A DNA stretch of 64,000 nucleotides from Escherichia coli. Its GTDB lineage: Bacteria; Pseudomonadota; Gammaproteobacteria; Enterobacterales; Enterobacteriaceae. Both the position numbers and the translations under genes were made by a program. Shown here one piece after another: positions 1 to 59,380 of this stretch (position 1 is the stretch's first letter; the number at the start of each line of letters is the position of its first letter). Where the stretch lies: assembly GCF_013122565.1 (NCBI RefSeq), contig NZ_CP053258.1; one strand, given 5' to 3'. Below the pieces are notes generated by a model, which was given only the letters and a program-made list of their open reading frames with translations, did not search any database and was not told the DNA's origin.

Positions 1-625
1 CGAATTCGGTCAGGATTTACAGGCTATTTCTGCGGGCGGTGGGCTTTCTATTCCTTATCAACAGGGTGAAGAGGCGGTTGATACCGAACATTATTATGGT
101 CTGTGGAATGCCGCGCGTGAGCAAATCGCTCGCCATTTGGGCCACCCTGTGAAACTGGAAATTGAACCGGGTCGCTTCCTGGTAGCGCAGTCTGGCGTAT
201 TAATTACTCAGGTGCGGAGCGTCAAACAAATGGGTAGCCGCCACTTTGTGCTGGTTGATGCCGGGTTCAACGATCTGATGCGCCCGGCAATGTACGGTAG
301 TTACCACCATATCAGTGCCCTGGCAGCTGATGGTCGTTCTCTGGAACACGCGCCAACGGTGGAAACCGTCGTCGCCGGGCCGTTATGTGAATCGGGCGAT
401 GTCTTTACCCAGCAGGAAGGGGGAAATGTCGAAACCCGCGCCTTGCCGGAAGTGAAGGCGGGTGATTATCTGGTACTGCATGATACAGGGGCATATGGCG
501 CATCAATGTCATCCAACTACAATAGCCGTCCGCTGTTACCAGAAGTTCTGTTTGATAATGGTCAGGCGCGGTTGATTCGCCGTCGCCAGACCATCGAAGA
601 ATTACTGGCGCTGGAATTGCTTTAA
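1..625 (+). CDS. lysA: Diaminopimelate decarboxylase, C-terminal part (5' end lies outside the window)
   Basis: Open frame runs from window edge to stop at 623-625; translated C-terminus matches my memory of LysA; position next to galR agrees with K-12 order. Confidence 0.85.
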   Translation, partial: EFGQDLQAISAGGGLSIPYQQGEEAVDTEHYYGLWNAAREQIARHLGHPVKLEIEPGRFLVAQSGVLITQVRSVKQMGSRHFVLVDAGFNDLMRPAMYGSYHHISALAADGRSLEHAPTVETVVAGPLCESGDVFTQQEGGNVETRALPEVKAGDYLVLHDTGAYGASMSSNYNSRPLLPEVLFDNGQARLIRRRQTIEELLALELL

Positions 626-631
626 CTGCGG

Positions 632-1663
632 TTAGTCGCTGGTTGCATGATGACTTGCCTCCAGCGACGGAGTTGACACTGAATGGCGACGTACCAGCGT
701 CGGACTAAAGACATTAGTGATTTCCGGGAGAGGGCGATTATCCGCCAGCGCCAAAGCCAGTTCGGCAGCCTGGGTCGCCATCGTCACGATTGGGTAACGC
801 ACGGTGGTCAGGCGCGGGCGCACATAGCGTGACACCAGCACATCATCAAAGCCAATTAACGAAATCTCACCCGGTACATCAATACCATTATCATTGAGAA
901 CGCCCATCGCACCCGCCGCCATTGAATCGTTATAACAGGCTACCGCAGTGAAATTTCTTCCTCGTCCCAAAAGCTCGGTCATTGCCTGTTCGCCGCCGCT
1001 TTCGTCTGGTTCGCCAAATGTCACCAGCCGGTCATTGGCCGCAATACCACTTTCAGCAAGAGCATCGTAATACCCTTGCAGACGATCTTCGGCGTCAGAA
1101 ATAGAGTGGTTAGAGCACAGATAACCAATGCGGGTATGACCTTGCTGAATTAAATGACGCGTAGCCAGCCAGGCACCGTAACGATCGTCCAGAGCAATAC
1201 AACGGTTTTCAAAGCCAGGCAGGATACGGTTGATCAGCACCATACCGGGCATTTGTTTCATTAATGAGGCTAAATCGGCATCTGGGATCATTTTGGCATG
1301 GACGACCAACGCAGCACAGCGATGGCGGATCAGTTGCTCAATAGCCTGACGCTCTTTTTGTTCGTTGTGGTAACCGTTGCCAATCAATAAGAAATTACCG
1401 GTGTGATAAGCCACCTGTTCGACCGCTTTCACCATTGCACCGAAAAACGGATCGGAAACATCACCAACAACCAGACCGACCGTTTCAGTGGTCTGCTGCG
1501 CCAGCGCACGGGCGTTGGCGTTCGGGTGATAGCTAAGAGACTCCATTGCACTATGCACAGCCAGCCGGGACGCTTCGCTGGCTTTGGGTGAATTATTAAT
1601 GACGCGGGAAACGGTGGCGACTGAAACGCCTGCCAGTCGGGCTACATCCTTTATGGTCGCCAT
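632..1663 (-). CDS. galR: Galactose operon repressor, LacI family
   Basis: 343 aa ORF; N-terminal HTH MATIKDVARLAGVSVATVSRVIN typical of LacI/GalR; synteny with aas and lysA. Confidence 0.92.
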   Translation of the reverse strand: MATIKDVARLAGVSVATVSRVINNSPKASEASRLAVHSAMESLSYHPNANARALAQQTTETVGLVVGDVSDPFFGAMVKAVEQVAYHTGNFLLIGNGYHNEQKERQAIEQLIRHRCAALVVHAKMIPDADLASLMKQMPGMVLINRILPGFENRCIALDDRYGAWLATRHLIQQGHTRIGYLCSNHSISDAEDRLQGYYDALAESGIAANDRLVTFGEPDESGGEQAMTELLGRGRNFTAVACYNDSMAAGAMGVLNDNGIDVPGEISLIGFDDVLVSRYVRPRLTTVRYPIVTMATQAAELALALADNRPLPEITNVFSPTLVRRHSVSTPSLEASHHATSD

Positions 1664-1876: not shown

Positions 1877-1958
1877 CCCAGAGGTATTGATAGGTGAAGT
1901 CAACTTCGGGTTGAGCACATGAATTACACCAGCCTGCGCAGATGCGCAGGTTTTTTTT
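1877..1958 (+). ncRNA. omrB: OmrB small RNA (RygB), 82 nt
   Basis: Starts CCCAGAGGTATTGATAGGTGA and ends in a GC hairpin plus T-run; shares 5' and 3' ends with the copy at 2074; length and 116-nt spacing match my recollection of the K-12 aas-galR intergenic sRNAs. Confidence 0.85.
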
Positions 1959-2073: not shown

Positions 2074-2161
2074 CCCAGAGGTATTGATTGGTGAGATTAT
2101 TCGGTACGCTCTTCGTACCCTGTCTCTTGCACCAACCTGCGCGGATGCGCAGGTTTTTTTT
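2074..2161 (+). ncRNA. omrA: OmrA small RNA (RygA), 88 nt
   Basis: Starts CCCAGAGGTATTGATTGGTGAG and ends CTGCGCGGATGCGCAGG plus T-run; 88 nt and 88 nt upstream of the aas start, as I recall for K-12. Confidence 0.85.
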
Positions 2162-35994: not shown

Positions 35995-36020
35995 GTTCAG
36001 CGAACGAAGTTTTTAAATAC

Positions 36021-36056
36021 AAAAAAACCGCAATTTGTGGAACACATTGCGGTTTA
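36021..36056 (-). terminator. Intrinsic terminator downstream of tRNA-fMet (minus strand)
   Basis: Minus-strand hairpin AACCGCAAT / ATTGCGGTT followed by a 7-T run, immediately 3' of the tRNA. Confidence 0.6.
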
Positions 36057-36062
36057 TCAGCA

Positions 36063-36139
<77 letters not shown>

Positions 36140-36357
36140 CCACCCCGCGTCCGTGGATGCGCACTATACTCCGCTCGCGTTTTCATGCAACCTTTTTTTT
36201 ACCCCGATCACGGTTCTGGCATGATTTTGAACAAAAACAAATCACTAAAGCCTATTTTTTGTGCAAAATTTGCGTCAGGGAGAGGCTGCTCATTTCATTA
36301 AACGCGGCGGTTTGTTATCTTCGTTGCGCCTTATTTTTTAACCTGAAGAAGAGAACA

Positions 36358-37455
36358 ATGAAAGGACGTTGGGTAAAGTACCTTCTTATGGGCACGGTTG
36401 TGGCAATGCTTGCCGCCTGCTCTTCCAAACCAACCGATCGCGGACAGCAATATAAAGACGGGAAATTTACCCAGCCTTTCTCTCTGGTGAACCAGCCAGA
36501 TGCCGTTGGCGCGCCGATTAACGCCGGTGATTTTGCTGAGCAAATTAACCATATCCGTAATTCGTCACCGCGTCTGTATGGCAACCAGAGTAATGTTTAT
36601 AACGCGGTGCAAGAGTGGCTGCGCGCAGGCGGTGATACCCGCAATATGCGCCAGTTCGGCATTGATGCCTGGCAGATGGAAGGTGCCGACAACTATGGTA
36701 ACGTGCAGTTTACAGGCTATTACACGCCGGTAATTCAGGCGCGCCATACCCGCCAGGGCGAGTTCCAGTATCCGATTTACCGTATGCCGCCAAAACGTGG
36801 TCGTCTGCCGTCTCGTGCGGAGATCTACGCGGGGGCATTGAGCGATAAATACATCCTCGCTTACAGCAACTCTCTGATGGATAATTTCATTATGGATGTG
36901 CAGGGTAGTGGGTATATCGACTTTGGTGATGGCAGCCCCCTTAACTTTTTCAGCTATGCAGGGAAAAACGGTCATGCCTATCGCAGCATTGGTAAGGTGC
37001 TGATCGACCGTGGCGAAGTGAAAAAAGAAGATATGTCGATGCAAGCGATTCGTCACTGGGGCGAAACACACAGTGAAGCCGAGGTTCGCGAGCTGCTGGA
37101 ACAGAACCCGTCTTTTGTCTTCTTTAAACCGCAATCTTTTGCACCGGTGAAAGGGGCAAGTGCGGTGCCGCTGGTTGGTCGTGCTTCTGTTGCCTCTGAT
37201 CGTTCCATTATTCCGCCAGGTACTACCTTGCTGGCAGAAGTGCCGTTACTGGATAATAACGGCAAATTTAATGGTCAGTACGAACTGCGTCTGATGGTGG
37301 CGCTGGATGTCGGTGGCGCAATCAAAGGCCAACACTTCGATATCTATCAAGGGATCGGGCCGGAAGCCGGACACCGTGCAGGTTGGTACAACCACTATGG
37401 ACGGGTTTGGGTACTGAAAACGGCTCCGGGCGCAGGTAACGTCTTTAGCGGCTGA
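36358..37455 (+). CDS. mltA: Membrane-bound lytic murein transglycosylase A
   Basis: Start at MKGRWVKYLLMGTVVAMLAACSS (lipoprotein signal, ATG 36358), 365 aa; the track ORF from 36037 is an upstream extension that would overlap the tRNA. Confidence 0.92.
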   Translation: MKGRWVKYLLMGTVVAMLAACSSKPTDRGQQYKDGKFTQPFSLVNQPDAVGAPINAGDFAEQINHIRNSSPRLYGNQSNVYNAVQEWLRAGGDTRNMRQFGIDAWQMEGADNYGNVQFTGYYTPVIQARHTRQGEFQYPIYRMPPKRGRLPSRAEIYAGALSDKYILAYSNSLMDNFIMDVQGSGYIDFGDGSPLNFFSYAGKNGHAYRSIGKVLIDRGEVKKEDMSMQAIRHWGETHSEAEVRELLEQNPSFVFFKPQSFAPVKGASAVPLVGRASVASDRSIIPPGTTLLAEVPLLDNNGKFNGQYELRLMVALDVGGAIKGQHFDIYQGIGPEAGHRAGWYNHYGRVWVLKTAPGAGNVFSG

Positions 37456-37543
37456 TGTGATATTCTGTATGCCGTTTTGACGGATATGACAGGGTGAGGG
37501 GTAACCTTACATCCTGATTATTGACTAAGTGCGTGTTGTTCAT

Positions 37544-37641
37544 GCCGGATGCGGCGTGAACGCCTTATCCGGCCTACAAATCATGCAAATCCAAAATATT
37601 GCAGGAGTTATGTAGGCCTGATAAGCGTAGCGCATCAGGCA
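37544..37641. repeat. BIME: two inverted REP elements
   Basis: GCCGGATGCGGCGTGAACGCCTTATCCGGCCTACA (37544-37578) and the inverted copy TGTAGGCCTGATAAGCGTAGCGCATCAGGCA (37611-37641). Confidence 0.75.
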
Positions 37642-37693
37642 ATTATGCGTTTAGGGTGAGGGATAACCTCACCCTTTTTAATTCAGAGGTGCT

Positions 37694-38500
37694 ATGTCTG
37701 TTGTAATTAGTGATGCCTGGCGTCAGCGTTTTGGCGGCACTGCGCGTCTGTATGGTGAAAAAGCGTTGCAACTGTTTGCTGACGCGCATATTTGTGTGGT
37801 CGGTATTGGCGGTGTCGGTTCCTGGGCGGCGGAAGCGCTGGCGCGCACGGGGATTGGCGCAATCACGCTTATCGATATGGATGATGTGTGCGTCACCAAT
37901 ACCAATCGGCAAATTCATGCCCTGCGCGATAACGTTGGGCTGGCAAAAGCGGAAGTTATGGCGGAGCGTATTCGCCAGATTAACCCGGAGTGCCGTGTAA
38001 CGGTGGTGGATGATTTCGTGACGCCGGATAACGTAGCGCAGTATATGAGCGTGGGTTATTCGTACGTGATTGATGCCATTGATAGTGTACGGCCCAAAGC
38101 GGCGCTGATTGCTTATTGTCGGCGCAATAAAATCCCACTGGTCACAACCGGTGGCGCGGGTGGGCAGATTGATCCGACGCAGATTCAGGTTACCGATCTG
38201 GCGAAAACGATTCAGGACCCGCTGGCGGCGAAGTTGCGTGAGCGCCTGAAAAGCGATTTTGGCATAGTGAAAAACAGTAAAGGTAAGCTCGGCGTGGATT
38301 GCGTGTTCTCTACCGAAGCATTGGTGTACCCGCAGTCAGACGGTACGGTGTGTGCTATGAAAGCCACGGCAGAAGGGCCGAAGCGGATGGATTGTGCATC
38401 TGGATTTGGCGCGGCGACGATGGTGACCGCCACCTTTGGTTTTGTTGCGGTTTCTCATGCGCTGAAGAAGATGATGGCGAAAGCGGCGCGTCAGGGGTAA
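37694..38500 (+). CDS. tcdA: tRNA threonylcarbamoyladenosine dehydratase (ThiF/MoeB-like E1 fold)
   Basis: 268 aa; nucleotide-binding motif VVGIGGVGSWAAEALARTG; synteny with csdA and csdE. Confidence 0.9.
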   Translation: MSVVISDAWRQRFGGTARLYGEKALQLFADAHICVVGIGGVGSWAAEALARTGIGAITLIDMDDVCVTNTNRQIHALRDNVGLAKAEVMAERIRQINPECRVTVVDDFVTPDNVAQYMSVGYSYVIDAIDSVRPKAALIAYCRRNKIPLVTTGGAGGQIDPTQIQVTDLAKTIQDPLAAKLRERLKSDFGIVKNSKGKLGVDCVFSTEALVYPQSDGTVCAMKATAEGPKRMDCASGFGAATMVTATFGFVAVSHALKKMMAKAARQG

Positions 38501-38506
38501 ACAATC

Positions 38507-38540
38507 AGGTCGGATGCGACGCGAACGTCTTATCCGACCT
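38507..38540. repeat. REP palindrome between convergent tcdA and csdE
   Basis: AGGTCGGATGCGACGCGAACGTCTTATCCGACCT. Confidence 0.7.
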
Positions 38541-38550
38541 GGTTCTGTGC

Positions 38551-38994
38551 TTAAACCTGCTTCGCCGCAGCGATAATCGCCTCGCTTAACGCATTCAACC
38601 CCTGGCTGCGTGAGGCGCTAAGGTGCGCACGCAATCCCAGCTCATCAAACAATGCCAGCGGCGACTGTGCCTGCAATTCGGCGGCGGTTTTCCCCTCAAC
38701 GGCAGTCAACAACACCGCCAGCAGGCCGCGCACAATGCGCCCTTCACTGTCGCCAAAGAAGTGCATTTTACCGTTTTCAGCCACGGTATATCCGAGCCAG
38801 ACGCGGTTTTCGCATCCGGCAATCTCTTTAGCCTGCGCTTTTAACTCGTCTGGCAAAGCCGGAAGCTGTTTCCCCAGCATGATCAACTGGCGATATTTAT
38901 CTTCCCATTGCGTCAACGGTGCGAAGGTATTGCGTAACGTTTCTGCGGTTACGGTTGTGCCGAACGGATGTCCGGCGAATTGCGGGTTCGTCAT
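38551..38994 (-). CDS. csdE: Sulfur acceptor protein CsdE (SufE-like)
   Basis: 147 aa; SufE-family sequence; adjacent to and overlapping csdA. Confidence 0.9.
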
Positions 38995-40199
38995 TAATCC
39001 ACCAATAATTCCAGCGCGCGGTCAACGGCATTCACCAGCGCATCCACATCACTCTTTGTATTATATGGCGCAAAAGAGGCGCGCAGAGTGCCGGTTACGC
39101 CTAATTCTGCCAGTAGCGGCTGAGCGCAATGCTGCCCGGCCCGCAGGGCAATACCGTACTCCGCCAGCAGCGTCACCATATCGCTGTGATGAACACCCGC
39201 GAAATCAAAGGCCAGCAGGCTGGAATCCTGGCAGCGGAATGAGCGGAAGCCAGGACGTTTTGCCAGCGCATCTTCCGCCAGCGTTGCTAAGCTACGGCTC
39301 CAGCTTTCGGCCTGGTTGATATCGTAATCTGCCAGCCATTCCAGCGCCGCGCTTAATCCTATGACACCAGCGACATTTGGCGTTCCGGCTTCCAGTTTCC
39401 ACGGCGCAGATTGAGTCGTGAAGCCGTCAAAACTCACTTCGTGAACCATTTTGCCACCGCCCAGCCAGGGCGACATCGCTTCCAGCAGTTCTGGTTTGCC
39501 ATACAGCACGCCGATACCTGTCGGGCCATACAGTTTGTGACCTGAAAAAGCATAGAAATCAATATCCAGTTGCTGAACATCCGCGGGGAAATGCACCGCC
39601 CCCTGAGCACCATCAACCATCACTACCATCCCGGCTGAATGAGCAAAGGTAATCGCTCGCGCCAGATCCGGGCAACCGCCAGTAACGTTCGACATCTGAC
39701 CCAACGCCAGAATCCGACTACGGGGAGTAATCAGTTCTGGCAACAAATCGACATCCGGCAGTCGCTGCGCATTAAGCGGCAATTTCACCACTTTGGCTCC
39801 AGTTTGTTGGGCGACCATCAGCCAGGGAACGAGGTTAGCGTGATGCTCTGCCACGCTGACAATAATCTCATCGCCCGGTTGCAGACGCGGACGCGCATAG
39901 CATTGTGCCACCATGTTGATGGATTCAGTGGTGCCGCGCGTCCAGACGATATTTTTGTCATACGATGCATTCAGTAATTGTGCCACTTTTTCCCGCGCAG
40001 CTTCATAACGCGCGGTCAGGCGTTGGGCTTCGGCAAACTGGCTGCGATGGACGTTTCCGGCGCTCAGGCTGTAAAACTGTCGGGTGGCTTCAACCACGGC
40101 TTCAGGTTTAAGCGCGGTCGCGGCGCTGTCGAGATAGACGCCCGCATCCTGTAGTGCGGGAAACTGGGCGCGAAACTGCGCGGGATTAAAAACGTTCAT
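38994..40199 (-). CDS. csdA: Cysteine desulfurase / cysteine sulfinate desulfinase CsdA
   Basis: Start at [16 protein letters not shown] (ATG 40197-40199), 401 aa; class V aminotransferase-like; the track ORF is extended 12 codons upstream. Confidence 0.9.
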
Positions 40200-40387
40200 G
40201 GTACTCCTCGGCTTGATGCACCGATCGTGACGCAAAATTCACTTTGATACAAGGATAGTGCTAACCATCAGAATTATCTGGATATCCTGGCGAAGCCGCG
40301 TAAGTAACATATGCTGAATAGTGTTAGGCATTAATTTTAGCCTGTTAATCAATACTATTAAGATTTATTAATCGCTTTAAGGAGAAG

Positions 40388-40618
40388 ATGATGAAAAAGA
40401 CTGCCGCAATTATTTCTGCCTGTATGCTGACTTTTGCCCTGAGCGCCTGTTCCGGTTCAAACTATGTGATGCACACCAATGACGGACGTACCATCGTCTC
40501 TGACGGCAAACCACAGACTGATAACGATACCGGTATGATTTCGTATAAAGACGCTAATGGCAACAAACAGCAGATCAACCGTACTGACGTGAAAGAGATG
40601 GTCGAACTGGATCAGTAA
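40388..40618 (+). CDS. ygdI: Small lipoprotein, DUF903 family
   Basis: 76 aa; lipobox LSAC; paralog of ygdR at 6774. Confidence 0.85.
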
Positions 40619-40634
40619 TTCGCGATCGCAAGGT

Positions 40635-40840
40635 AAAAAAAAGCACCGCAATTAGGCGGTGCTACATTAATCACTATGGACAGACAGGGTAAATGTACAG
40701 GAAGTGAAAAAAGGTAGCTTTGCTACCATGGTCTGAATCGCAGACCAATTGCAAACACAACAACACAACATCACAACCGTAAGCCAAAAGTTCACCAGAA
40801 CACGCATTCCGATAAAACTTTTCGTTCCGGCTCAGGAAGT
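40635..40840 (-). ncRNA. gcvB: GcvB small RNA
   Basis: Minus-strand read begins ACTTCCTGAGCCGGAACGAAAAGTTTTATCGG and ends GCACCGCCTAATTGCGGTGC plus U-run; includes the GT-rich stretch TGTTGTGTTGTTGTGTT; 206 nt, divergent from gcvA. Confidence 0.88.
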
Positions 40841-40968
40841 GCCGCCACTATAGGTATTTGCTGGTAGAAGCTCAACGGACAATTTATAATGGCTCAGATT
40901 AAAAAAACTAATAGGTTACACAGTGTGATCTAATTGTTAAATTCATTTAACATCAAAGTTTAAAAGCC

Positions 40969-41886
40969 ATGTCTAAACGATTACCACCGCTAAATGCCTT
41001 ACGAGTTTTTGATGCCGCAGCACGCCATTTAAGTTTCACTCGCGCAGCAGAAGAGCTTTTTGTGACCCAGGCCGCAGTAAGTCATCAAATCAAGTCTCTT
41101 GAGGATTTTCTGGGGCTAAAACTGTTCCGCCGCCGTAATCGTTCACTCCTGTTGACCGAGGAAGGTCAAAGCTATTTCCTCGATATCAAAGAGATATTTT
41201 CGCAATTAACCGAAGCGACGCGTAAACTCCAGGCCCGTAGCGCCAAGGGGGCGTTGACGGTCAGTTTACTCCCTAGTTTTGCCATTCATTGGTTGGTTCC
41301 GCGACTTTCCAGCTTTAATTCAGCTTATCCGGGAATTGACGTTCGAATCCAGGCGGTTGATCGTCAGGAAGATAAGCTGGCGGATGATGTTGATGTGGCG
41401 ATATTTTATGGTCGGGGCAACTGGCCGGGGCTACGGGTGGAAAAACTGTACGCCGAATATTTATTGCCGGTGTGTTCGCCTCTACTGCTGACTGGCGAAA
41501 AACCCTTGAAGACCCCGGAAGATCTGGCTAAACATACGCTATTACATGATGCGTCACGCCGTGACTGGCAGACATATACCCGACAATTGGGGTTAAATCA
41601 TATCAACGTTCAGCAAGGGCCAATTTTTAGCCATAGCGCCATGGTGCTGCAAGCGGCTATCCACGGGCAGGGAGTGGCGCTGGCAAATAACGTGATGGCG
41701 CAATCTGAAATTGAAGCCGGACGTCTTGTTTGCCCGTTTAATGATGTTCTGGTCAGTAAAAACGCTTTTTATCTGGTTTGTCATGACAGCCAGGCAGAAC
41801 TGGGTAAAATAGCCGCCTTTCGCCAATGGATCCTGGCGAAAGCCGCTGCTGAACAAGAAAAATTCCGCTTTCGTTATGAACAATAA
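40969..41886 (+). CDS. gcvA: Glycine cleavage system transcriptional activator, LysR family
   Basis: 305 aa; LysR-type HTH N-terminus. Confidence 0.92.
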   Translation: MSKRLPPLNALRVFDAAARHLSFTRAAEELFVTQAAVSHQIKSLEDFLGLKLFRRRNRSLLLTEEGQSYFLDIKEIFSQLTEATRKLQARSAKGALTVSLLPSFAIHWLVPRLSSFNSAYPGIDVRIQAVDRQEDKLADDVDVAIFYGRGNWPGLRVEKLYAEYLLPVCSPLLLTGEKPLKTPEDLAKHTLLHDASRRDWQTYTRQLGLNHINVQQGPIFSHSAMVLQAAIHGQGVALANNVMAQSEIEAGRLVCPFNDVLVSKNAFYLVCHDSQAELGKIAAFRQWILAKAAAEQEKFRFRYEQ

Positions 41887-41904
41887 TTTACGTAGGGTAC
41901 GACC

Positions 41905-42300
41905 ATGACCAGCCGTTTTATGCTGATTTTCGCCGCCATTAGCGGCTTCATTTTTGTGGCTCTGGGCGCTTTTGGCGCGCATGTGTTAAGTAAAACCATG
42001 GGGGCCGTTGAGATGGGCTGGATCCAGACCGGCCTCGAATACCAGGCGTTTCATACGCTGGCGATCTTAGGTCTGGCGGTGGCAATGCAGCGTCGCATCA
42101 GTATCTGGTTTTACTGGAGTAGCGTTTTCCTCGCGTTAGGCACGGTGCTGTTCAGCGGCAGCCTTTATTGCCTGGCACTGTCCCATCTGCGTTTGTGGGC
42201 GTTTGTCACTCCGGTTGGCGGCGTGAGCTTCCTTGCGGGCTGGGCGTTAATGTTAGTTGGTGCTATCCGTTTAAAGCGCAAGGGCGTAAGTCATGAATAA
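41905..42300 (+). CDS. ygdD: Inner membrane protein, DUF423
   Basis: 131 aa, four hydrophobic segments; overlaps the rlmM start. Confidence 0.85.
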
Positions 42301-43393
42301 GGTTGTATTGCTGTGCCGTCCGGGCTTTGAAAAAGAGTGCGCCGCAGAAATTACCGATAAAGCCGGCCAGCGGGAAATTTTCGGTTTTGCCCGCGTGAAA
42401 GAGAATGCGGGTTATGTCATTTATGAATGTTATCAACCTGATGATGGCGATAAGTTAATCCGTGAGCTGCCGTTCAGTTCATTAATTTTTGCCCGCCAGT
42501 GGTTTGTGGTGGGGGAACTCCTGCAGCATTTGCCGCCAGAAGATCGTATTACCCCCATTGTCGGCATGTTGCAGGGCGTAGTAGAGAAGGGCGGTGAACT
42601 GCGTGTTGAAGTTGCCGATACCAACGAAAGCAAAGAGTTGCTGAAATTCTGCCGTAAATTCACTGTTCCGCTACGCGCTGCCTTGCGCGATGTCGGGGTG
42701 CTGGCGAACTATGAAACGCCGAAGCGTCCGGTTGTGCATGTATTCTTTATTGCACCAGGCTGCTGCTATACCGGTTACTCATACAGCAACAATAATTCGC
42801 CGTTCTATATGGGCATTCCGCGCCTGAAATTTCCGGCAGATGCGCCGAGTCGTTCCACGCTCAAACTGGAAGAGGCATTTCATGTGTTTATTCCTGCGGA
42901 TGAGTGGGATGAACGCCTGGCGAACGGGATGTGGGCGGTGGATTTAGGCGCTTGCCCTGGCGGCTGGACCTACCAACTGGTGAAGCGCAACATGTGGGTT
43001 TATTCCGTCGACAACGGCCCGATGGCGCAAAGTCTGATGGATACCGGGCAGGTGACGTGGCTGCGGGAAGATGGTTTCAAATTCCGTCCGACACGCAGCA
43101 ATATCTCCTGGATGGTATGCGATATGGTTGAAAAACCGGCGAAAGTTGCGGCATTGATGGCGCAGTGGCTGGTTAATGGCTGGTGCCGTGAAACCATTTT
43201 CAACCTCAAACTGCCGATGAAAAAACGCTACGAAGAAGTATCACACAATCTGGCGTATATTCAGGCACAGCTTGATGAACATGGCATAAATGCTCAGATT
43301 CAGGCGCGGCAGTTGTATCACGATCGCGAAGAAGTGACGGTGCACGTCCGCCGCATCTGGGCTGCGGTGGGTGGTCGTCGCGACGAGCGATAA
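42293..43393 (+). CDS. rlmM: 23S rRNA 2'-O-ribose C2498 methyltransferase
   Basis: 366 aa; synteny with ygdD and fucR. Confidence 0.88.
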
Positions 43394-43436
43394 CAGGCAA
43401 GGCCGGGGCGTCGTCTCCGGCCTGCTACCCTTTCCG

Positions 43437-44168
43437 TCAGGCTGTTACCAAAGAAGTTGCAACCTGGCGCTCATCAGAAATAATGTGCGTTACCTCATCC
43501 AGATGCCCGATGCGGGCTTCCCCTGAACGATTAAATTTACTTTTATCAATCAATAACAACGATTGCGCGGCACGTTTTAATAGCATCGATTTGTAATCAG
43601 CGTTGATGGCATTGGAGTCCCACAGTGCGCCGCTGCTATCGATCCCTTCACAAGAAAAAATAAACAGATCGATTTCCAGCGATTTAAGTTGGGAAATCAG
43701 CGAGGGATTGACGTAACAGCCATATTTGCGCTCAAGTGTGCCGCCGGAACTGATCAGTTGAATGCGTTCGCGTTTACCGAGTTCATGGCAAATCGGATGG
43801 CTATTGGTGAAGACCAGAATGTTGATGTCAGGCAACTGGCGTGCCAGATACCAGCAGGTTGAACTGGCGTCTAAGGCTATTACCATCCCTTCTTCAATCC
43901 ATGCGAGCGCCTCGCGCGCGATATCTGCTTTATGCGCATAATGGCTTTTCAGCCGGATGTGAAAGGGATCGCCACTGTCTTGATTTTGACGGTGGATATA
44001 TTTAGCGCGCCCATGATTGCGCAGAATTTTACCCTGCGTCTGTAATTCATTGAGATCGCGACGAATGGTTTCTTTACTGACCTTTAGCTGTTCAGAGAGA
44101 GCTTCCGTGGTCAGGCTGGTATGGTTCAGCAGCAGGTCGACTATCGCTTGCTGGCGTGCCGCTTTCAT
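43437..44168 (-). CDS. fucR: L-fucose operon activator, DeoR family
   Basis: Start at MKAARQQAIVDLL (243 aa); the track ORF begins 3 codons earlier (MKNMKAAR). Confidence 0.9.
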   Translation of the reverse strand: MKAARQQAIVDLLLNHTSLTTEALSEQLKVSKETIRRDLNELQTQGKILRNHGRAKYIHRQNQDSGDPFHIRLKSHYAHKADIAREALAWIEEGMVIALDASSTCWYLARQLPDINILVFTNSHPICHELGKRERIQLISSGGTLERKYGCYVNPSLISQLKSLEIDLFIFSCEGIDSSGALWDSNAINADYKSMLLKRAAQSLLLIDKSKFNRSGEARIGHLDEVTHIISDERQVATSLVTA

Positions 44169-44225
44169 ATTTTTCACCCCATCATTCGATAACCGCCCGC
44201 GTCATGCGGGCGTACCGGTATGAGA

Positions 44226-44648
44226 TTACGGTGTTACCCCTTTTTTTAAAAGAATATTCCCGTACTTCGCTCGTTCGCCTGTGATAACGATCGCAAAGGC
44301 TTTTTGTGCCCGTTCATAAAACGCAAAACGATTGATGCGGATGATGTCAGGACACGGGGCTTGTAGTGAAAGCGCATTACGGTAACGTCGTTCTACTTCA
44401 GGATCGAGAGTGTCACCTTCTACCGCCGCCATCATCACCAGCGGCGGTGCATAACTGTCCAGTTCAAATAACGGGATAATCGCCTGGAGCAAGTCGCTCA
44501 CCAACAGGCCATCAGCGCGGATCACCTGCGGTCCCATCGAATGGGCGGGAAAGTGAGCATCGGAAAAAATAATTTCATCTCCATGCCCCATCTCTGCCAG
44601 CACTTTCAATAGTTCGGGAGAAATTAACGGCGAAATTGTTTTCAGCAT
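44226..44648 (-). CDS. fucU: L-fucose mutarotase
   Basis: 140 aa; RbsD/FucU family; synteny. Confidence 0.9.
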
Positions 44649-44649
44649 T

Positions 44650-46068
44650 TCACACTTCCTCTATAAATTCAGGTTCAGTTTGCGGGTAGAAATAACGGTA
44701 CTGATAATGAATCTGTGCGCGGGCTTCTTCCGGGCTGTTAAATTCCCCTATGCCATACCAACCGAACAGCGCAGCTCCTGCGACGGTCGTTTCGGCGTCG
44801 TCGAGAACTTTTACCGGAATATCAAGCATATTGGCTTTAATCTGATTCCACAATGTGTTGCGACTTCCTCCGCCGACTAACAATAATTCAGAGGCTTTAA
44901 AGTGCCCGATTTTTTCCAGCATCTGTAGATTGCGCTGTAATTGCGCAGTTAACCCTTCCAGCGCCGCGCGATAGAAATGCCCCCGCGTGGTATTAAGCGT
45001 CACTCCTTGCCAGCCAGCGTTCTGACACGACAATAAATCACACTGCATTTTCACGCCATCCGCGCCAGGCGCGATCAGACGAGCCTCTTCAATCAACATT
45101 TGCCAAGGTGTTTCAGCCGTCCAGAACAGTTTTCTCACCCATTCCAGCACGCCTGATGCCAGCCATTGCATACCTGGGTTATACAACCCTGCCTGGCTAT
45201 CCAGTTCGCAGGTGGAACCGGCGTACTGACTTAACAGCGAAGTATCAACCTGGGCGCTGCGAACCATTAAAATTTCCCATGTACCTGAAGAGAGCACGGG
45301 TTCATTTTGTTCAGCACCAGCGCCAAAAAGGGCGAACTGGGTATCGTGACCTGCGGAAATCACCGGTATGCCAACGGGTAAGCCGAGCATTGCTGCGGCG
45401 CTGTTCTGTAGCGTACCAATCTGTTCACCCGCTTCCACCAGACGAGGGAAAAGTCGGCGTGGAATACCGGTGGCTTGTAAAATTTGCGGACTGAAATCGC
45501 GTTGCTGGATATCCAGCATCTGGCTGGTTCCGGCCATCGTGATATCAGTAGTGAATTCACCGGTTAAACGGTGGTTAATCAGCGACGAAATAAAGAGCCA
45601 GGCGTGCGCGCGTTCCAGCAGTTGTGGATGATTTTCTTTCAACCACACCAACTTATATAACGTATTGAAACTAAAGGCTCCGACGCCAGAAATAGCCTGC
45701 AACTGCTGTGCGGAGATCAACCGTTCAATATTGTCCATAACCGCTGCTGTTCGCGGACATTTCCAGCTAATGATCGGATAGAGCAGATTGCCTTGCTTAT
45801 CTACCAGAGCGCCATCCACACCAAAGGTGGTGACGGCGATACCGCGGATGTGGCATTCAGTCAGTTCACTATTGATTTGCCGACAGCAATCAGAAAAGCG
45901 TTGCAAAATGGCGTCTAAAGACCACTGGTGCCAGGTGTTGTTTTCCATCGCGATATCGCTGGCATTAGGCGTTGAGGCGCGGGCAACAATTTTTCCCTGC
46001 CGATTAACCGCGATGGCCCTGACATTGGTCGCACCACAGTCGAGTACCAGGATAACTTCTTGTTTCAT
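44650..46068 (-). CDS. fucK: L-fuculokinase
   Basis: FGGY kinase family; start at [17 protein letters not shown] (472 aa); alternative upstream ATG at 46098. Confidence 0.88.
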
Positions 46069-59011: not shown

Positions 59012-59380
59012 GTCGACAGGGAGTCAGACAACGAAGTGAACATCAGGATGATGACACTTCTGAAGGACACACCAGGATGGTGTTTCAGGGAAAGGCTTCT
59101 GGATGAAGCGAAGAGGATGACGCAGGACGCGTTAAAGGACACCTCCAGGATGGAGAATGAGAACCGGTCAGGATGATCCGGTGGGTCAGGAAGGCCAGGG
59201 ACACTTCAGGATGAAGTATCACATCGGGGTGGTGTGAGCAGGAAGCAATAGTTCAGGATGAACGATTGGCCGCAAGGCCAGAGGAAAAGTTGTCAAGGAT
59301 GAGCAGGGAGCAACAAAAGTAGCTGGAATGCTGCGAAACGAACCGGGAGCACTGTGAATACAGTGCTCCCTTTTTTTATT
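59012..59380 (+). ncRNA. csrB: CsrB small RNA (CsrA-sequestering)
   Basis: About 369 nt with roughly 20 GGA motifs (CAGGATG, AGGACA and similar) and a 3' terminator GGGAGCACTGTGAATACAGTGCTCCC plus T-run; between syd and yqcC as in K-12; the 5' end is approximate within about 10 nt. Confidence 0.88.

Follow-up and report, generated by a model that had tools for sequence, protein, structure and literature searches.

The 64-kb stretch of Escherichia coli DNA analysed here (the window) carries, on its minus strand, the canonical and already known gene for the small regulatory RNA GcvB. With a probability of about 98%, the feature is the chromosomal gcvB of a non-K-12 E. coli, encoding an untranslated, Hfq-dependent sRNA that would be expressed from a sigma-70 type promoter and pair with amino-acid transporter mRNAs. 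Comparing 36000..46000 of the window with all 4227 Rfam families revealed a GcvB match (RF00022) at 40635..40840 (-), which spanned the complete model (1-204/204) and scored 199 bits against a gathering score of 42 (E = 1.8e-47). The first-pass annotation had called a 206-nt GcvB sRNA on this strand, a call that was to fall if the Rfam model found nothing; the model instead matched at full length, far above threshold and at exactly the two end positions given there. The same match was obtained when the whole window was scanned, as the lone GcvB copy in 64 kb. Read on the minus strand, the gene starts with ACTTCCTGAGCCGG and ends with GCGGTGCTTTTTTTT.

Alignment to the K-12 gene, the other comparison proposed at the outset, showed 100% identity (206/206) to gcvB b4443 (NC_000913.3 2942696..2942901), with the flanking genes alike; the curated K-12 MG1655 record lists this locus as ncRNA gcvB b4443, 'small regulatory RNA GcvB', 206 nt, between gcvA and ygdI. 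Since the surrounding 6 kb differ from K-12 at 98 of 6001 positions (1.6%), the window stems from a non-K-12 E. coli. At that rate about three differences would be expected per 206 nt, but none was found within gcvB, which is better conserved than its coding neighbours. No evidence contradicting the identity as gcvB was found in the sequence analyses.

The genomic surroundings are likewise those of K-12. The window has the gene order rlmM-ygdD-gcvA <> gcvB-ygdI-csdA-csdE-tcdA, corresponding to fucR-rlmM-ygdD-gcvA / gcvB / ygdI-csdA-csdE-tcdA in K-12, and runs in the reverse orientation. Because both neighbours lie on the plus strand and gcvB on the minus strand, gcvB is divergent from gcvA and convergent with ygdI (Table 1), in agreement with the placement between ygdI and gcvA, divergent from the latter, in the first-pass annotation. 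GcvA is the published activator of gcvB (PMC9299463, PMC4474525). At the other end, 16 nt separate the ygdI stop codon from the gcvB 3' end, and ygdI is a neighbour rather than a functional part of the gcvB system.

Table 1 Features of the gcvB locus. Positions are those of the window; GcvB nucleotides are counted from nt 1 (40840) to nt 206 (40635).
Feature	Position	Strand	GcvB nt	Basis and remarks
ygdI, YgdI/YgdR lipoprotein gene, convergent neighbour	40391..40618	+		NF033216, 113 bits; K-12 annotation
gcvB sRNA gene	40635..40840	-	1-206 (206 nt)	RF00022 and K-12 identity
Stem-loop 5, intrinsic terminator with U8 tail	40635..40663	-	178-206	Terminator scan
Stem-loop 4	40664..40697	-	144-177	Rfam consensus; loop holds R3
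R3 seed ACCCUGUCUGUCC	40690..40678	-	151-163	In the loop of stem-loop 4
R2 seed core CACUUCCUGUACA	40694..40706	-	135-147	Highly conserved (upper-case) in Rfam consensus; role PMC9299463
Stem-loop 3 and U6, internal terminator-like hairpin	40707..40727	-	114-134 (hairpin 114-128)	
Stem-loop 2	40729..40747	-	94-112	Rfam consensus; 3 pairs change on both sides
R1, G/U-rich linker between stem-loops 1 and 2	40748..40780	-	61-93	Unpaired in Rfam consensus; conserved across species
Stem-loop 1	40781..40832	-	9-60	Rfam consensus; mean unpaired probability 0.23
gcvB promoter-like site	40847..40875	-		Consensus scan; -35 TTGAGC 40875..40870, 17-nt spacer, -10 TATAGT 40852..40847
TATAAT, placed as -10 of the divergent gcvA promoter	40885..40890	+		Read from sequence
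CTAAT box (ATTAG on the gcvB strand), candidate GcvA-site core	40908..40912	+		-72..-68 from gcvB +1
gcvA, LysR-type regulator, divergent neighbour	40969..41886	+		NF008352, 512.8 bits vs cut-off 288; K-12 annotation

Related loci were collected by scanning species-representative genomes with the pattern TTGTGTTTGCA-N(25-55)-CACTTCCTGTA, which returned at least 120 loci; of the 120 listed, 119 are in Enterobacterales or Pasteurellales. The one other, at 602..815 of a Flavobacteriales MAG (locus L087), was rejected as GcvB and taken for a chance match: it has no gcvA, lacks the 5' and 3' GcvB elements and appears to be coding sequence. As the lone chance match outside Gammaproteobacteria among the matches listed, it illustrates that matches to a 22-base exact pattern need context checks. 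In a tblastn search with the GcvA of the window, every genuine locus among the matches listed that had sufficient flanking sequence (105 of 105) showed a gcvA lying upstream in the opposite orientation, and the 14 genuine loci without a GcvA match all had less than 235 nt of upstream sequence. The divergent gcvA is kept even in Pasteurellales/Pasteurellaceae, although their GcvA is only 46-54% identical.

For structural analyses, the window sequence was aligned by MAFFT with 40 non-redundant Enterobacterales sequences (alignment A1, 41 sequences). Pasteurellaceae, for which gcvA linkage was still scored, were left out of A1 and thus of the covariation analysis because their identity to the window row in a preliminary MAFFT alignment that included flanks was only 36-45%, which would make the placement of stems untrustworthy. 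Near-invariant blocks in A1 were the 5' end (ACUUCC..GCCGGAACGAAAAG), the linker R1, the sites R2 and R3, and the terminator stem, while stem-loops 1-3 varied. The invariance of the two 11-mers that made up the search pattern follows from how the loci were selected. This does not apply to the remaining blocks, and the independent Rfam consensus shows conservation at those positions too. When the Rfam structure was imposed on A1, 84.3% of cells could pair, as compared to 35-50% with the partners slid by 1-3 columns. In addition, 18 pairs changed on both sides, where shuffles gave 9.7 +/- 1.5, and none of 500 shuffles reached the observed value on any measure. These comparisons indicate that the five-hairpin structure is backed by covariation in the 41 Enterobacterales sequences.

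The anatomy of the RNA was obtained by mapping the Rfam consensus structure onto the window sequence (Table 1). Ten of the 18 pairs changing on both sides fall in the apical helices of stem-loop 1. Stem-loop 2 has only 60% of cells paired, which reflects gaps that MAFFT misplaced in its loop and no real mispairing. Stem-loop 3 was matched in the terminator scan at 40727..40713, followed by TTTTTT; here, 90% of cells were paired and three pairs changed on both sides. In the final hairpin, stem-loop 5, 96.6% of cells were paired across the 41 sequences. Its stem (40663..40642) has eight pairs, six of them G-C, closing a loop of 6 nt, and a T8 run extends from it to 40635. A terminator had been placed at 40635-40662 before; it is indeed present, and its stem begins one base further 5', at 40663, a trivial correction. 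A Rho-independent terminator with a poly-U tail is a typical Hfq-binding 3' end.

Three published seeds, R1, R2 and R3, are located between and within these hairpins, and most GcvB targets use the G/U-rich R1 (PMC9299463, PMC4474525), the main published seed region (PMC9299463). The GT-rich single-stranded motif on which the first-pass annotation had focused, TGTTGTGTTGTTGTGTT, was found at a single site of the window, 40770..40754 (-), corresponding to GcvB nt 71-87 inside R1. It is part of a 19-nt G/T-only run, the longest on either strand of the 64 kb (the next is 17 nt, followed by three of 15). An 8-nt extension of R1, which forms part of this 17-mer, was present only in the Enterobacteriaceae-type sequences of A1. 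The earlier description is thereby refined, R1 being one of three published seeds (PMC9299463). R2 is invariant in A1, partly by construction, as 11 of its 13 bases were in the search pattern; R3, outside the search pattern, is nearly invariant in the 41 sequences. In the published work, R3 was defined by mutating G156, G160 and C162 (PMC9299463); gcvB of the window carries identical bases at all three sites.

Folding calculations predict R1 and the U-runs to be accessible. The RNA has a predicted free energy of -62.1 kcal/mol (z = -3.6 relative to 200 dinucleotide shuffles, 0/200 as stable). Partition-function calculations gave unpaired probabilities of 0.68 for the GT-rich motif, 0.82 and 0.92 for the U-runs and 0.60 for R3, compared to a mean of 0.39 for the whole RNA, which bears out the single-stranded character ascribed to the motif. 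The minimum-free-energy fold weakly pairs part of R1, and the linker as a whole averages an unpaired probability of only 0.49; R1 is open in the centroid structure and in the Rfam consensus.

An open reading frame of 46 codons inside gcvB (40807..40667 (-), MRVLVNFWLTVVMLCCCVCNW...) could in principle be translated instead of, or alongside, action as an RNA, a reading we consider very improbable. The ORF exists in the window sequence, a version of 44-46 codons from this ATG persists in roughly a dozen closely related Enterobacteriaceae, and Salmonella retains the ORF as well, but this persistence would be expected from near-identical RNA sequence alone. Kosakonia (ATT), Trabulsiella, Enterobacter Bisph1, Mangrovibacter and Enterobacter R1 have lost either the start codon or the frame, and the ORF is missing from every genus outside Enterobacteriaceae, while the RNA blocks and hairpins stay conserved; moreover, the 8-nt R1 indel between the groups would shift its frame. 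The 20 nt before the ATG hold no Shine-Dalgarno sequence, and the ATG itself is located at the apex of stem-loop 1. We therefore rejected the coding reading, and we regard a dual-function GcvB in the clade of E. coli, Salmonella and close relatives, with low-level translation of the ORF, as just as improbable. The title of Urbanowski et al. 2000, as cited in PMC9299463, likewise calls GcvB an untranslated RNA. A decayed or non-functional pseudo-sRNA copy, or a chance resemblance, is less probable still and practically negligible: natural disruptions of gcvB do occur (in one E. coli genome by an IS4-like element after nt 125) and nothing specific speaks for one here, whereas the window copy matches the functional K-12 gene at every base, has an intact promoter and terminator and carries no insertion, which excludes this reading; it is also the only copy in the window and more conserved than the coding neighbours.

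Turning to the control region of the untranslated gcvB RNA, the -10 box of the promoter-like site is followed by a 6-nt discriminator, GGCGGC, and an A at 40840, the predicted gcvB +1. We aligned the 135 nt upstream of +1 from 25 Enterobacterales species, in which CCTATAGT and TTGA are invariant or nearly so. Between -75 and +1, hardly any position varies from Escherichia to Proteus and Photorhabdus, and conservation collapses farther upstream. The conserved block holds the gcvB -35 and -10 boxes, ATTAG followed by a T-run, and CATTATAA. ATTAG hardly varies among the 25 species (each column conserved in 90% of rows or more), and the T-run after it is conserved; on the plus strand, ATTAG reads CTAAT, which we take from footprinting by the Stauffer laboratory to be the core common to GcvA binding sites. 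A second copy of CTAAT is found at 40930..40934. The CATTATAA block is invariant across the 25 species, and its plus strand reads a perfect TATAAT. If, as we presume from published mapping, gcvA starts about 72 nt upstream of its ATG at 40969, its start would lie near 40897. On that reading, the gcvA and gcvB promoters would be arranged back to back, with one candidate GcvA site serving both. Compared to K-12, the gcvA-gcvB spacer shows only two substitutions, at 40921 (-81 from gcvB +1) and at 40964 (5 nt before the gcvA ATG), both outside the block conserved across species.

GcvB has been described as an Hfq-dependent RNA of ~200 nt, divergent from gcvA and activated by GcvA/GcvR at high glycine; most targets pair with R1 through C/A-rich sites that overlap the ribosome-binding site or precede it, and GcvB decay is controlled by the SroC sponge (PMC9299463, PMC4474525). 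The role that the first-pass annotation gave to the GT-rich region agrees with this published account of R1. The locus in the window has every sequence and structural element that this published model requires, unchanged from the founding strain. Regulation of the promoter, Hfq dependence, target pairing and its consequences are probably those of the published work. Following this model, plentiful glycine would lead GcvA, with GcvR, to turn gcvB on, and transcription from the sigma-70 type promoter of gcvB, arranged back to back with that of gcvA, would yield the 206-nt untranslated, Hfq-dependent sRNA. Its five hairpins would leave the linkers R1 and R2 and the loop with R3 exposed, and these seeds would base-pair with many mRNAs, at C/A-rich stretches located at the ribosome-binding site or shortly upstream of it. 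The targets would be amino-acid and peptide transporter mRNAs and amino-acid biosynthesis mRNAs encoded elsewhere in the genome, such as oppA, dppA, gltI, cycA and gdhA, and pairing would block translation and lower mRNA levels.

The known GcvB targets lie outside the window. A scan for local targets, in which duplex energies were computed for R1 (nt 63-93) and positions -50 to +21 of 75 ATG-ORFs in the window (100 aa or longer, called mechanically), gave no signal: the best duplex had -26.4 kcal/mol, while for shuffled R1 the best duplex per shuffle averaged -24.2 (sd 1.8) and the most stable one reached -28.4. Several of the top duplex matches were spurious antisense ORFs. PMC9299463 names none of sdaC, argA, lysA, csdA and ygdI as a target.

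Comparison with known GcvB RNAs places the window copy closest to that of K-12 (b4443), with which it has in common the 206-nt sequence, the strand relation to gcvA and ygdI, the promoter boxes and the terminators; there is no difference in the RNA, and the two differ only in the spacer, at the two positions given above. GcvB of Salmonella enterica shares the five-hairpin layout, R1 with the 8-nt extension, R2, R3 and the linkage to gcvA, but carries a small number of substitutions, located in stem-loops 1 and 2 and in the loop of the terminator, consistent with the description of the E. coli and Salmonella RNAs as ~10 nt apart with structure and function common to both (PMC9299463). In Yersinia, Serratia, Proteus, Photorhabdus and Pasteurellaceae, GcvB is again divergent from gcvA and has the 5' end, the R1 core, R2, R3 and the terminator conserved. 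In contrast to the window copy, these five groups have a shorter R1 without the 8-nt extension, and their stem-loops 1-3 differ in sequence, with compensating changes.

Other RNA features were also noted in the window. CsrB RNA is present at full length at 59021..59380 (+) (RF00018, 384 bits vs a gathering score of 71), and a tandem pair of OmrA/OmrB-family sRNAs is located at 1877..1958 and 2074..2161 (+) (RF00079, 86 and 97 bits). A short match to the ES036 (CssrF) sRNA at 37577..37619 (+), modestly above threshold (46.5 vs 37.6 bits), lies just upstream of tcdA (37694..38500). Between mltA and amiC, the window has a single initiator tRNA-Met (anticodon CAT; 36073..36149 (-)) at a site where K-12 has three tandem copies (metZ, metW, metV), which would mean either that the strains differ in copy number or that the assembly has collapsed the repeat.

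Among complete E. coli genomes, the gcvB sequence was present in 5425 of 5426 (megablast), with at least 99% identity in 5389, and one genome had no match. The collection held 5429 matching places, one of them on a plasmid. A natural disruption was observed in E. coli OkiPb01677 (L003, NZ_AP042483.1, 3001..4560), where the match breaks off at nt 125 and the two gcvB halves are separated by an IS4-like transposase gene of the ISVsa5 family. RefSeq/PGAP records of E. coli showed no feature under the gcvB match among the rows inspected, and a gcvB feature was found only in the curated K-12 record among the records inspected. The empty slot is a gap of annotation practice, neither a sign of novelty nor evidence against the gene, and the ygdI-gcvA intergenic region that looks empty in these records should not be taken for unexplored sequence. 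The importance of the finding is one of correct annotation only: this strain has an intact, reference-identical copy of GcvB, which has been described as the master sRNA regulator in enteric bacteria for the transport and metabolism of amino acids (PMC9299463).
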